The notes below the pieces were generated by a model that was not told the origin of the DNA, made no database searches, and worked only from the letters and a program-made list of their open reading frames with translations. 64,000 nt of DNA from Candidatus Binataceae bacterium (GTDB lineage Bacteria > Desulfobacterota > Binatia > Binatales > Binataceae). The stretch spans positions 1,545 through 65,544 of the forward strand of contig CAWDLC010000036.1 of NCBI GenBank assembly GCA_963803045.1, written 5' to 3'. Each line of letters begins with the position of its first letter. The stretch's first letter is position 1. Both the position numbers and the translations under genes were made by a program. Of this stretch, positions 41,859 through 46,138 are shown in pieces.

Positions 41859-43370
41859 ATGTGGGGCATCTTTTTAATAGCGCTAATCATTTACGCCGTC
41901 GTCCAACATCGAAAACGAAAACGGCTGCGCTGGATGAAATGGGGCGACGGCGGCGACTGGTCGAAGCACGGCGACTGGTCAAAGTGGTCGCACCGTGACT
42001 GGTCGAAGTGGACGGCAGACGCGAAGGCCTCGGCGACGGCGTCGGCTGAGCGCTTCGCAAACGACCTTCATTCCAAAATAAAGCGCGACTTCGACAGCAA
42101 GATGGCGCGCAAGTTCGAGGCCAAGGCCGAGCGATTCGAGCGCAAGCTGCGGGCGCGATTCGATCGCCAGACGCAGAAATACAGCGGCGTCAGCCTGGAT
42201 CCCGCGCAAGATTTGCCGCCGCCGCAGTTCAAGAACGACGCCGAGCGCCAGACTTACGAGCGCGCGCACAAACGCGCCCAGGCCGAGGCGGGTTTCTTCG
42301 TGCACCTGATGTGGTACGGCATCATCATCGGCTTCCTGTTCGTCATCAATCTGCTGACGGGCGGGTTCGGCGGATATCCGTGGTTCCTGTGGCCGGCGCT
42401 CTTCTGGGGATTTGGAATCGCGAGCCACTTTGCGGCGGTGTACGGCTGGCGATGGGTTCATCAGCGGGTTTTCCAACCTGCGATCGCACGCGAAGTTCAG
42501 CGCGAAGTCTTGCAGGAGAAAGAGCAACTGCGGACGGAGAAGCAGGCGTCGCTGGACGAGTTGACCGCGACCTTTGCCCACGAAATCCGAAACCCGATCG
42601 CGGCGGCGAAGAGCCTGGTGCAGCAGATGGGCGAGGATCCGACCTCGCACGAGAACGTCGAATACGCGAAGGTTGCGCTCGACGAGCTCGCACGCGTCGA
42701 GCGCAGCGTGTCGCATCTGCTCAAATACGCGAAAGAAGAAGGCTACAAGTTCGAAAACGTCAATCTTGCGTGGGTGCTCGACGGCGCGCTGACGCAGATG
42801 CGCAGCAAACTGGAGGCGAACTCGGTGGCGGTGTCGCGCGCGTACCTGAGCGGTCCGACCGTGCGCGCCGACGCCGACAAGCTGCGGCAGGTTTTTTCGA
42901 ACATCATCGACAACGCCATCGACGCGATGGAATCGGCGAGCGGCGAGCGCCGGCTCGAGTTGGCGATACAGAACAATGGTGCGGGAATGGCGGCGGTCAG
43001 GATTCGCGACAACGGCTGCGGAATTGCGGACGACAAGATCGCCAAGATTTTCAACCCGTTCTACACGTCGAAGACCAACGGCACCGGGCTTGGGCTGGGC
43101 GTCGCGAAAAAAGTAATCGACGCGCATCGTGGAACGATCGAGGTGCAAAGCAAACTGGGCAATGGAACCGAATTCGTGCTGGCGATTCCGCTCAGCGACG
43201 CGGTGCGCGATAGCGCCGATTCATCGATCGAATCGCCCACAGCAGACCTGGCCGGCGAAACGGCCGGGGAACCGGCGCCGGCAAACAACGGTCGCAGCGC
43301 GGTCGCCGCGCCGATCGTCGCGCTGGGATCGGGCGCGCCGTCCACCGAGAGCTCGAGGGCACGCAATTGA
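41859..43370 (+). CDS. Sensor histidine kinase with N-terminal TM helix and 2TM domain
   Basis: GFFVHL...[17 protein letters not shown] (2TM); FAHEIRNP H-box; [27 protein letters not shown]. Confidence 0.93.
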
Positions 43371-44821
43371 AAGGCCGATTGCTGGTAGTTGACGACGAGC
43401 ACGGAATCGTCATCGCGCTCAAGGGGCTCTTCACCAAGGAGGGCTACGAGGTCGAGACCGCGCAGTCGGGCGAGGAAGCGCTCGACAAGGTCAAGGCCGG
43501 CCTGTTCCACGTGATCATCACCGATCTGAGCATGAAGGGAATGAGCGGGCTCGAATTGCTCAAGCAGGTCCGCGAACTCGATCCCGCGTGCGCCGTGCTG
43601 ATGATCACCGCGTTCGGTACGCAGCGAATCGCAGTCGAAGCGATGAAGGCGGGGGCGGAGGACTACCTGCCCAAGCCGTTCGACAACGACGAGCTGCGCC
43701 TGAAAGTGCGCAAGGTGATGGAGACGCAGCTGCTCAAGCGCGCGCATAGCCAGCTGCTCGAACAGGTGCGTCTGGAGACCGGAGTTTTCGAGAATATGGT
43801 CGGCAGATCGCGCGCGATGATGCGCGTGTTCGAGACGATCGACAAGGTCGCGCCGACCGACGTCACGGTTTTGATACGCGGCGAGTCCGGCACCGGCAAG
43901 GAGCTGGTCGCACGCGCGATCCATTTTCGAAGTCCGCGCGCGCGCAAGCCGTTTATCGCGGTCAATTGCGCGGCGTTCTCGCGCGAGCTGGTCGAGAGCG
44001 AGCTGTTCGGCCACGAAAAAGGCGCGTTTACCGGCGCCGTCGCGCGTCGCGAAGGCAAATTCGAAGCGGCCGACGGCGGCACCTTGTTCCTGGACGAAAT
44101 CGGCGACATGGCGCTCGAGACGCAGGCCAAATTGCTGCGCGTGCTGCAGGAGCAGCGGTTCGAGCGGATCGGCGGGAATCAACCGCTGAGCGTGGACGTG
44201 CGGATAATCGCGGCGACCAATCAGGACCTCGAAGCGATGATAGCTCTGGGGAAGTTTCGCGAGGATCTCTACTACCGCCTGAAGGTGGTGGAGATTCGGG
44301 TGCCACCGATTCGCGAGCGGCGCGAAGACATTGCGCTGATGGTCCAGCACTTCATCGCGGAGGCATGCCAACGTTTCTCCGCGCCCAAAAAGCAGCTTAC
44401 GGCAGAGGCGATGCGCGCGTGTGTCGAGGCGCCGTGGAAAGGCAACGCGCGTTCGCTCAAGGCGGCAATCGAGCAGGCGGTGATCCTGTCGTCCGGCGCC
44501 GAGATCACCGCGGAAGATCTTTTCGCCGGCTCGGAACCGGATGGCGACCGCGCGAGTTCGCCGGCGCTGGGCGTGTCGAATCACGCATCTGCGCTAGGCG
44601 AAGGCGCCGACTCGGCGCTGACGTTTCGCGAGGCGAAAGAAAAATTCGTCGGCGATTGGGAACGCGAGTTTTTCGTCCGCGCGCTGCGGGCGACCGGCGG
44701 CAATATCTCGCGTGCCGCAGAACGAACCGGGATCTACCGGCAAAGCTTTCAACAAAAAATGCGCGAACTGGGGATCACACTCGCGGATATCGGGCTCGCG
44801 CCCAAGGGTGACGGGAATTGA
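43367..44821 (+). CDS. Sigma54-dependent NtrC-family response regulator
   Basis: Receiver VVDDE / ITDLSM / [42 protein letters not shown]; Fis [11 protein letters not shown]. Confidence 0.96.
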
Positions 44822-44849
44822 TTTCGCGCAGATATGGAGACGGTAAGCG

Positions 44850-45332
44850 ATGAACTCGACTGAACCTCAGTCCCCGAGCAATACGCTCACGACCATGAAA
44901 ATTTATCCTCCCCTGCTGGCGGCTGCGCTGGTGCTGGGCACGCTGGTGCTGCACTTCATCCTGCCCGAGGAGCGCTCGGTGGGATGGTATCAGGCGATCG
45001 GCCTGCTGGTGGTTGCGGCCGGCGTGGGAGTGTCGTGTTTCGCGGTCGCGATTTTCCACGCCCGCGGGACGACCAGGAATCCGTACGGCGAGCCGGCCGC
45101 CTTCGTCGCTCAGGCGCCGTACACCTGGACGCGAAACCCCATGTACCTGGGCCTCGCGACCGCGCTGATCGGACTGGCAATCTTCTTCAGTTCGATCGCG
45201 ATGTTGCTGGCGCCGGCGGTGTTCTTTGCGGTGATCGATCGGATGGTAATTCCCCGCGAGGAGGAGACGATGGAGCGGCTCTTCGGCCAGGATTACGCCG
45301 ATTACAAGAATCGCGTCAGACGTTGGATCTGA
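44850..45332 (+). CDS. Isoprenylcysteine carboxylmethyltransferase / PEMT family membrane methyltransferase
   Basis: YPP, PYTWTRNPMYLG, REE...FGQDYADYKNRVRRWI. Confidence 0.9.
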   Translation: MNSTEPQSPSNTLTTMKIYPPLLAAALVLGTLVLHFILPEERSVGWYQAIGLLVVAAGVGVSCFAVAIFHARGTTRNPYGEPAAFVAQAPYTWTRNPMYLGLATALIGLAIFFSSIAMLLAPAVFFAVIDRMVIPREEETMERLFGQDYADYKNRVRRWI

Positions 45333-45397
45333 AAAAAACTTCAGCAACAGGCGGCTGCGCGGGCGAATCGCGCTCGGGGCCGAAAAGGAGAACGGAA

Positions 45398-46138
45398 GTG
45401 TTATCAAGATTATTCAAATTGATCGGAGGCAAGTTCAGCCGCTGGATTAAAGCGCGCGAGGCGCGCGACCCCGAGGCGGTGTACGAATCCGCCATCTCGG
45501 ATCGAATCCGGCGCTATCATCAGCTCAAGACCGCGGCGGCTGGCGTTATCTACATGCGCAACAAACTCGAGCGCGAGCTGCGTGAAAAGCTCGCCGAGAT
45601 GAAGGAAGTCGATGAAGAAGCGGGGCAGGCCGCCGATATGAACGAGGATCAATGCGCGCTGATTCTGATTCAGCGCAAGCACATCCTCGACGGCGATTGC
45701 ACGCGGCTCGGCGAAGAGCTCGGCGAACTGACTTCGGAAGCCGAGGACGCGAAGAAGAATTTGATCGCGTTCAAGGGCGAGATCGAGAAGCTCAAGATCG
45801 AAAAGGTGCGAATGATCGCGCGGCTGAAGAACGCGCAGGCGCGGGTGCGAATCCAGCGTGCGCTCGAGGAGATTTCGTACGACGACGACGTCCGCGCGCT
45901 CGAAGAAGTGCGCGAGTCGGTTCAGCGGATGCTCGCGCAGGCGGGCGTCAATCGCGAAATCGCCGACTCTGAACTCGGCGACAAGCTCGAGGCGATCCGT
46001 CAGCGCAACGCCGAGGCCAGGGCCGAGGCCGAGCTGGCGGACTTGAAGCGCAAACGCCGGCCGCCGCTGGCGCCGATGGATATTTTCACCGCCGCAGCCG
46101 ACGCGGCCGCCAACGGCGACCTCAAGCACGCGAGCTGA
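45398..46138 (+). CDS. pspA: PspA/IM30 family (bacterial ESCRT-III) protein
   Basis: AAGGAG RBS plus GTG; amphipathic N-helix LSRLFKLIGGKF, DPE motif, long coiled coil, ARLKNAQAR, AEAELADLK. Confidence 0.82.
   Translation: MLSRLFKLIGGKFSRWIKAREARDPEAVYESAISDRIRRYHQLKTAAAGVIYMRNKLERELREKLAEMKEVDEEAGQAADMNEDQCALILIQRKHILDGDCTRLGEELGELTSEAEDAKKNLIAFKGEIEKLKIEKVRMIARLKNAQARVRIQRALEEISYDDDVRALEEVRESVQRMLAQAGVNREIADSELGDKLEAIRQRNAEARAEAELADLKRKRRPPLAPMDIFTAAADAAANGDLKHAS

Follow-up and report, generated by a model that had tools for sequence, protein, structure and literature searches.

A predicted operon of four genes, which encode a sensor histidine kinase, an NtrC-type response regulator, an integral-membrane methyltransferase and a PspA/IM30 protein, is located at positions 41859–46138 of a stretch of DNA of 64,000 nucleotides (nt), the window analysed here. 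The host is Candidatus Binatus, an uncultured soil bacterium of the family Binataceae, and its own genome is a metagenome-assembled genome of 3.5 Mb (81% complete). All four genes lie on the plus strand. The TTG start of the regulator overlaps the stop codon of the kinase by 4 nt; gaps of 28 nt (regulator/methyltransferase) and 65 nt (methyltransferase/PspA) follow. The list of open reading frames (ORFs) and the sequence agree on this arrangement, which the initial annotation of the window had described. The start codon of PspA is GTG, preceded by AGGAG. A predicted sigma-54 promoter and a candidate enhancer are located upstream of the kinase. The features, with the evidence used to assign them, are as follows.

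41859..43370, plus strand: sensor histidine kinase, 503 amino acids (aa); Pfam, motifs, alignment, structure model
43367..44821, plus strand: NtrC-type response regulator, 484 aa; Pfam, motifs, solved relatives, NCBIfam
44850..45332, plus strand: integral-membrane S-adenosylmethionine methyltransferase of the PEMT/ICMT fold, 160 aa, read as an accessory gene of the Binataceae; Pfam, NCBIfam, fold matches
45398..46138, plus strand: PspA/IM30 (bacterial ESCRT-III) protein, 246 aa; Pfam, solved relatives, amphipathic N-terminal helix
41730..41745, plus strand: predicted sigma-54 (-24/-12) promoter CGGCATCGGCTTTGCT, which starts 129 nt before the kinase ATG; conservation
41626..41657, no strand: candidate enhancer (upstream activating sequence) of two overlapping palindromes, ~100 nt upstream of the promoter; conservation

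Proteins encoded by the operon

The kinase matches the Pfam domains 2TM (PF13239; 7.9e-18, 64.7 bits against a cut-off of 24.8), HisKA (PF00512) and HATPase_c, a fusion that is also present in other kinase matches found in the searches. The H-box is HEIRNP, with His241 as the predicted phospho-acceptor. PAS, GAF, HAMP and periplasmic domains are absent from the Pfam matches, the alignment and the structure model, and only ~5–8 residues (172–176 in the model) connect the helices of the 2TM hairpin (residues ~145–205). The earlier description of a two-helix kinase without a periplasmic sensor domain is therefore correct for the core; it had overlooked an extra N-terminal transmembrane helix and a segment of ~110 residues. 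Alignment and model place this first transmembrane helix at residues 2–16, within a helix spanning 2–28, as a membrane anchor followed by basic residues. The ~110 residues between the anchor and the hairpin are helical, Trp-rich and charged, and the positive-inside rule would place them in the cytoplasm. The structure model has a mean predicted local distance difference test (pLDDT) score of 65.6, with values of 42–55 over residues 21–80. In it, the anchor is followed by low-confidence DWSK repeats, a long charged helix (45–108) and a Pro-rich linker. The helix 127–171 is a basic helix that continues into the first hairpin helix, and the helix 177–258 runs unbroken from the second hairpin helix through His241 into the dimerisation and histidine phosphotransfer (DHp) domain. 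The catalytic and ATP-binding domain (299–445) is modelled confidently and is followed by a disordered tail.

The tandem repeats DWSK(W/H/Y) (residues ~28–51; window 41940–42010) vary in number between Binatus species, and the relative P0060 has many more of them (L040–L043 compared). In other families, the N-terminal segment carries a single W-x3-W-x3-W helix (WHREWERHWAEKF-like) with Trp at i, i+4 and i+8, a spacing suggestive of a helix at the membrane surface. The tail of the Binataceae kinases (~447–503; window 43200–43370) is disordered, comprises ~55 residues and ends in a conserved SR(A/L)RN. Its DNA overlaps the start region of the regulator, and selection may act on translational coupling here rather than on the protein. 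The nearest NCBIfam models for the kinase core are AtoS (7e-57) and ZraS (2e-45), both far below the equivalog cut-offs. A complex prediction of kinase residues 1–240 with PspA, made without controls, scored 0.00 and carries no weight for or against a contact.

The regulator has the acceptor Asp, the AAA+ domain with Walker A and GAFTGA, and the Fis-type helix-turn-helix (HTH) of an NtrC-type activator. Pfam identifies Response_reg (2.7e-31), Sigma54_activat (2.7e-76), AAA_lid_14 and HTH_8, and the motifs are intact: Asp53 in the receiver (REC), Walker A at 172 and GAFTGA at 219. The best solved relatives are receiver-controlled NtrC-family proteins of Aquifex (3e-100), with PspF at 1.6e-66; NtrC, AtoC and ZraR are the nearest NCBIfam models, and all are far below their equivalog cut-offs. 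Trp56 of PspF contacts PspA (PMC6003685, in part). Its position corresponds to Ala192 of the regulator by an ungapped offset rather than a residue-level alignment, which speaks against an inhibition of the E. coli kind, as far as such an offset can be read. Several solved structures of the Psp operon activator PspF have been deposited recently (PDB 9q90–9q98).

Pfam assigns the methyltransferase to PEMT (1.1e-11, 45.5 bits, cut-off 25); the match to ICMT (6.7e-5, 23.7 bits, cut-off 24) falls just short. The earlier domain calls are in this way recovered for PF13239, PF04012 and PEMT and narrowly missed for ICMT. The C-terminus matches ICMT structures in sequence over the cofactor-binding motif. 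The four top Foldseek hits of the structure model (pLDDT 73.8) are ICMT or ICMT-like chains (5vg9, 5v7p and 4a2n among them), all of them weak (E 0.05–0.6, TM score 0.52–0.58, probability 0.89–1.0). In an alignment of 17 sequences, 38 residues are invariant, and the motif RNPMY.G...EE...F..Y..Y...V is invariant or nearly so. The best NCBIfam model is LmtA (TIGR04571; 1.3e-11), with a score of 44.8 bits that is far below the cut-off of 325. Going by the name of the model, we take LmtA to be the lipid A Kdo2 1-phosphate O-methyltransferase of Leptospira. With 160 aa, the protein is shorter than both LmtA (252 model positions) and eukaryotic ICMT.

The last gene product was assigned to PspA/IM30 by the initial annotation, and this holds: PspA_IM30 (PF04012) is matched with 1.2e-20 and 74.5 bits against a cut-off of 33.9, residues 2–219 covering profile positions 3–217 of 220. 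Residues 20–220 align in sequence with solved Vipp1 (7o3w, 1.3e-9; 6zvr, 3.6e-9), and the best solved matches are cyanobacterial Vipp1 chains. The N-terminal helix (residues 2–19) is amphipathic, with a hydrophobic moment of 0.67, and is conserved in nine of nine aligned relatives. The enterobacterial PspA equivalog TIGR02977 is missed by far (29.9 bits against 242.95), and in a Pfam search the protein scores 76 bits against 100–175 for most canonical PspAs of the phylum. On these scores it is a clear member of the family, yet of a diverged subfamily. Its tail, LKR.RR..L.P(M/L)(D/N)(I/L) (residues ~220–246; window 46060–46135), is conserved across families and could be a docking motif. In three genomes, PspA matches 3' of a 2TM kinase are broken or carry an in-frame TGA (G352:C3:171403-172019, G475:C16:185311-186005 and G451:C6:554614-555325), and these frame-broken genes would be cases of decay or assembly errors.

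Conservation of the linkage and of the promoter region

The order kinase–regulator–methyltransferase–PspA, with the same flanks, is found in all six loci of the genus. The loci from five other families of the class (5/5) have kinase–regulator–PspA without the methyltransferase. For the Binataceae, the best 80 of 310 relatives in species-representative genomes were compared. In 79 of these loci, the regulator immediately precedes PspA or the pair methyltransferase–PspA; the sequence of the remaining locus starts within the methyltransferase. A kinase is seen in 71, and in the other nine a contig end falls within the regulator or the methyltransferase. Among 201 genomes drawn evenly from the class, 65 have a PspA of this type, and in 57 of them (including the unpublished genome G019) a 2TM kinase lies 2025–2980 nt upstream of PspA on the same strand. 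The distances are bimodal, with 44 genomes lacking the methyltransferase and 13 having it. Unlinked PspA genes are found in three genomes with contig breaks, as fragments, in G484 (a paralog-like sole match) and as second copies in G381 and G489, which are already counted as linked. In a sample of 301 genomes of the phylum, 2TM frames of kinase length occur only in five genomes of the class of the window (G000, G240, G298, G027 and G032), where they always adjoin PspA; elsewhere, 2TM is found in frames of ~60–150 aa. A kinase–regulator pair of this kind is missing from eleven further PspA loci of the phylum or class. One of these (L140) has an NtrC-type regulator of 37% identity and a kinase ~2.4 kb away on the opposite strand.

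A second clade is present in metagenomes. Searching 1.84 billion representative proteins with kinase residues 125–300 (E ≤ 1e-10) returned 188 clusters, and as there are only 188 at this threshold, the kinase family is small. Metagenome contigs were scanned with an alignment of ten shorter kinases (322–453 aa, without N-terminal anchor), and 47 of the 80 loci returned have a kinase that is <50% identical to that of the window. In this far clade, 34 of 36 testable loci have the regulator after the kinase, and 17 of 18 have PspA after the regulator. The Pfam architectures are 2TM-HisKA-HATPase_c, REC-Sigma54_activat-HTH_8 and PspA_IM30. The far-clade kinases have no N-terminal anchor and retain only the basic helix and the hairpin, so the 2TM domain would be the common sensor. 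Eight loci (L150–L154, L168 and L207 among them) have a second HisKA-HATPase paralog of ~364–390 aa between the 2TM kinase and the regulator; its front is a similar basic helix plus hairpin, which Pfam does not score as 2TM. Atlas labels, which we use as leads only, place kinase clusters of the same architecture mostly in Myxococcota and the nearest clusters of the far-clade PspA in Acidobacteriota, Myxococcota and Pseudomonadota. The initial annotation had proposed that an intramembrane kinase drives a receiver-bearing sigma-54 activator of PspA, and the survey of gene neighbourhoods supports this linkage across the class (57/65 genomes) and in the second deep clade (17/18 loci).

The promoter sequence CGGCATCGGCTTTGCT has two mismatches to TGGCAC-N5-TTGCW. 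Matches of this quality number 13 in the window against 24 expected, and taken alone it is no better than chance. What makes the predicted sigma-54 promoter, already noted in the initial annotation, convincing is its conservation. A motif (C/T)GGCA(C/T)-N5-(C/T)TTGC(A/T) is kept in 55 of the 56 Binataceae loci whose sequence covers the kinase start, mostly ~100–130 nt ahead of the start codon, with fixed GGCA and TTGC parts and a variable spacer. Four of the five loci from other families have the motif amid otherwise unlike intergenic DNA; the fifth has a weaker GG-N10-GC match, seen by eye. The best match to the sigma-54 consensus anywhere in the window is AGGCACTTATTTTGCA (55772–55787, plus strand; one mismatch).

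The candidate enhancer comprises TGCAG-N8-CTGCA (41626–41643) and, overlapping it, TGCAC-N8-CTGCA (41640–41657). Of 62 upstream regions, 41 contain a palindrome of the TGCAG-N8-CTGCA type, amid spacers that vary freely. In the far clade, 24 of the 37 loci with ≥500 nt upstream have a perfect palindrome, and all 24 have GGCA(C/T)-N6-TTGC (CTGC in one) located 59–111 nt 3' of it; none of 29 coding-sequence controls contains the palindrome. The genome of the host has three perfect palindromes and 65 sigma-54-like motifs, and the two coincide only at the operon. The conserved unit, on these counts, is the enhancer, the promoter, the 2TM kinase, the NtrC-type regulator and PspA, and the regulator would bind at the palindromes. 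Outside the window, a good sigma-54 motif (TGGCATCAGCCTTGCT) precedes a short frame at C17:31354 on the plus strand, and a palindrome with one mismatch is located 158 nt upstream of the motif. Chance alone would give ~0.4 sites when the palindrome may have one mismatch, and this candidate for an additional regulon site was dropped.

No conserved sigma-54 motif is located within 700 nt upstream of pspA. An internal promoter before pspA was considered and rejected: the weak CTGCT-type matches of 18 of 80 loci fall within coding sequence and are not conserved. A scan for sigma-70 promoters and terminators gave nothing on the plus strand, including no plus-strand terminator-like site inside the operon. 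The simplest reading is a single message from one sigma-54 promoter, with the regulator driving its own synthesis. Public RNA libraries, available as contigs from which start, strand and level cannot be read, contain relatives (90–97%) of the kinase, the regulator and pspA in four metatranscriptome runs. Contig X18 (record 19) spans the kinase/regulator junction, and hardly any contig covers the methyltransferase at 90% likeness. Rfam has no match in 41400–46400.

The operon is flanked by pyrF (40700–41509, minus strand) and cinA (46188–47471, minus strand). The TauE-like permease, pyrF, cinA and PgpA-like flanks (39812–41509; 46188–48055) hold their position genus-wide, the PgpA-like label being a reading of the ORF translation. 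As the flanks are constant throughout the genus, the operon keeps its place in the chromosome and is not carried by a mobile element. The host genome has rpoN, one PspA gene and one 2TM gene. It also gives 19 matches to sigma-54 activators, for which reason the absence of pspF cannot be judged by family.

Relation to known PspA systems

With the enterobacterial phage-shock protein (Psp) system (pspF, pspABC(DE)), the operon shares an effector of the PspA family, a sigma-54 promoter (here a predicted one), an NtrC-type AAA+ activator with Fis-type HTH and a small dedicated regulon. The activators differ. Enterobacterial PspF lacks a receiver and is kept in check by PspA, with PspB and PspC passing the signal; the activator here has a receiver and a cognate kinase. 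The Psp promoter stands in front of pspA, whereas here it stands in front of the kinase gene. In Desulfovibrio vulgaris, too, pspA is served by a PspF without receiver (PMC4641369, in part). PspB, PspC, LiaF-like_C and DUF4097 (Toastrack) were not found in the host genome at its 81% completeness, nor was PspC in five near-complete congeners (0/5); LiaI was not searched for. The earlier statement that pspB, pspC and liaF are missing is confirmed within these limits.

The LiaFSR-LiaIH system of B. subtilis resembles the operon in that an intramembrane-sensing kinase with almost no outside loop induces a PspA homolog through a two-component pathway. The dimerisation domain of LiaS is HisKA_3, and LiaR is a NarL/LuxR-type regulator that depends on sigma-70. 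The Lia system has the partners LiaF and LiaI; the operon instead has a 2TM domain, HisKA, no HAMP, an NtrC-type regulator, sigma-54 and the effector as its last gene. LiaS has a HAMP domain, and LiaR is described as REC with a winged HTH (PMC11237479, in part).

ZraPSR and AtoSC of E. coli provide the closest named models for the kinase core and the regulator, although every score falls far short of its equivalog cut-off. ZraPSR responds to envelope stress and has a small regulon. The input domains of ZraS and AtoS are periplasmic or of the PAS kind, and their targets (ZraP, the ato genes) are others. The initial annotation had described the locus as a hybrid of Psp and Lia. As to the mode of working this is apt; as to descent it is not, the kinase core resembling the AtoS/ZraS type and the regulator the NtrC/AtoC/ZraR type. 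The module works like a cross of Psp and Lia and is a member of neither. A third known wiring is that of the mycobacterial ClgR-PspA-PspM-PspN system, in which PspA has both its own regulator and a partner in the membrane; ClgR is a Cro-like HTH regulator that acts without sigma-54 and without a kinase (PMC11237479, in part).

In the portions of the Psp surveys covered here, the two-component systems beside PspA have receiver-HTH regulators (PMC9239133, PMC11237479), and the sigma-54 activators beside PspA are PspF-like or have ACT/PAS domains (PMC9239133, PMC11237479, PMC4641369). Within the same portions, PMC9239133 does not mention Binatota and PMC11237479 does not mention a methyltransferase; the latter has two mentions of 2TM, both of which concern other proteins. 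A printed description of the module was not found in the covered text of PMC9239133, PMC11237479, PMC3041696, PMC4641369 and PMC12316311, the supplements and web resources of the surveys being outside the scope. Literature on Binatota/Binatia, on myxobacterial NtrC-like activators and on 2TM/PF13239 with PspA likewise gave nothing that describes it. The kinase–regulator–PspA wiring of a phage-shock response appears not to be described in these surveys, as far as their covered text extends.

A model for PspA synthesis and its alternatives

Gene order, domains, catalytic motifs, linkage and the conservation of the cis-elements allow a model to be built that would assign a stimulus, a path of phosphotransfer, a binding site, co-transcription and the roles of PspA and the methyltransferase. 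We consider it probable that the locus is a sigma-54-dependent operon which activates itself and supplies PspA when it is needed. The sensor would be the 2TM hairpin with the basic helix that precedes it, in a kinase without extracytoplasmic domain. The Binatus kinase would add its N-terminal membrane anchor and the Trp-lined charged helical segment, for which a cytoplasmic location is predicted. When the cytoplasmic membrane is disturbed, the signal would be transmitted along the continuous helix that leads from the second hairpin helix into the DHp domain. His241 would then be phosphorylated and the phosphate passed to Asp53 of the regulator. The phosphorylated regulator may assemble at the TGCAG-N8-CTGCA sites ~100 nt upstream and open the sigma-54 promoter. 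Kinase, regulator, methyltransferase (in Binataceae) and PspA would be made from one message, which would result in positive autoregulation. PspA would bind and stabilise the membrane through its amphipathic N-terminal helix, and the methyltransferase may be a lineage-specific second effector that methylates a membrane acceptor. Phosphorylation would replace the PspA–PspF partner switching.

A bolder version of this model, which we regard as speculative and rather doubtful, takes 2TM as a stand-alone sensor of the membrane state (lipid packing, curvature stress) that replaces both PspBC and the PspA–PspF switch. The module would then represent a fourth phage-shock archetype, present in at least two deep clades. 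PspA may feed back on the Trp-lined helix of the kinase, and the Binataceae enzyme, induced together with PspA, would methylate an anionic envelope lipid and so add a second defence.

Several observations weigh against an on-demand operon of this design. The effector is encoded last, behind its own regulators, an unusual position for a protein required in large amounts. The host genome is 81% complete, and a second member of the regulon or a partner gene could be missing from it. The kinase model is of modest confidence, with a poor N-terminal segment. The perfect palindrome is not found in 21 of 62 upstream regions and in 13 of 37 upstream regions of the far clade. No RNA-library contig from the four metatranscriptome runs bridges regulator, methyltransferase and pspA. 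One far-clade locus (L213) has no PspA. Kinase–regulator pairs without PspA are also found at L124, L125, L127 and L129 (G436, G452, G456 and G468; three from family f11 and one from f9), where the contigs extend far enough 3' to judge. The genes 3' of these pairs are unrelated and encode another kinase, an AAA-like protein and a Tex-like protein, and no PspA of this type was found in the four genomes. Furthermore, the relatives compared are not independent, so the counts overstate the support.

Of the alternatives, one makes PspA chiefly a regulator, as it is for PspF in E. coli; it would hold the kinase or the activator off and let go of it on moving to damaged membrane, with phosphorylation on top of partner switching. 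In the classical systems PspA binds both a regulator and a membrane partner (PMC9239133, PMC11237479, both in part). No target beyond the operon itself is apparent for the circuit, as would fit a feedback loop, and the conserved C-terminal tail of PspA and the conserved Trp-rich cytoplasmic helix of the kinase are possible docking sites. However, a regulator with a full receiver and Asp53 needs no protein inhibitor, its nearest solved relatives are the receiver-controlled Aquifex proteins and not PspF, and Ala192 takes the position of Trp56 by the ungapped offset; we judge a chiefly regulatory PspA to be unlikely. Less likely still, and to us distinctly improbable, is that the two-component pair answers a cue other than membrane damage (a partner protein, a redox or metabolic signal, the growth phase) and that PspA is Vipp1-like and serves to build the membrane rather than repair it. 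The cyanobacterial Vipp1 chains among the best solved matches, the wide miss of the PspA equivalog model (29.9 bits against 243), the likeness of kinase core and regulator to the AtoS/AtoC and NtrB/NtrC types and the genomes that hold the pair without PspA would all fit such a cue. Against it, PAS, GAF, HAMP and periplasmic domains are all missing from the kinase, both clades conserve nothing on the sensor side but the 2TM hairpin and its basic helix, and the linkage to PspA is kept across two deep clades.

The remaining question is whether the methyltransferase belongs to the response at all. It could be a passenger, inserted between regulator and pspA in an ancestor of the Binataceae and without a tie to the stress response, and we consider this a serious possibility, somewhat short of an even chance. 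Of 80 Binataceae loci, 64 have the gene between regulator and PspA and 16 lack it; none of the five loci from other families and none of the 47 far-clade metagenome loci has it. On the PspA tree, which is a quick tree only, its distribution needs at least three changes on well-supported branches and eight by parsimony. The 3.5-Mb genome of the host contains six PEMT-family paralogs, an expansion of small ICMT-like membrane methyltransferases. On the other side, the gene occupies the same slot with short gaps in those 64 loci, and the 38 residues invariant among 17 sequences include the C-terminal cofactor-binding motif. Having no terminator or promoter of its own, and with the gaps so short, it would have to be co-expressed with pspA. 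We read it as an accessory effector in Binataceae and not as part of the conserved system. The initial annotation had counted it as part of that system, which the distribution does not support, and had suggested that it could remodel lipids; given the LmtA score of 44.8 bits against 325, lipid remodelling is a lead only.

The repair of membranes by PspA, Vipp1 and ESCRT-III proteins is ancient. Even in E. coli, it is still debated how cells perceive the damage that makes these proteins necessary. If the locus is the self-activating operon proposed above, the module would reduce the problem to one kinase with a hairpin input, one phosphorylated activator, one promoter with its enhancer and one effector. 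Rebuilt in E. coli or in liposomes, it would make the physical signal that switches on PspA directly testable. It would also mean that sigma-54 control of PspA is possible without PspA–PspF partner switching, and it may provide a first functional context for the Pfam 2TM domain and for one of many orphan ICMT-like enzymes in bacteria.

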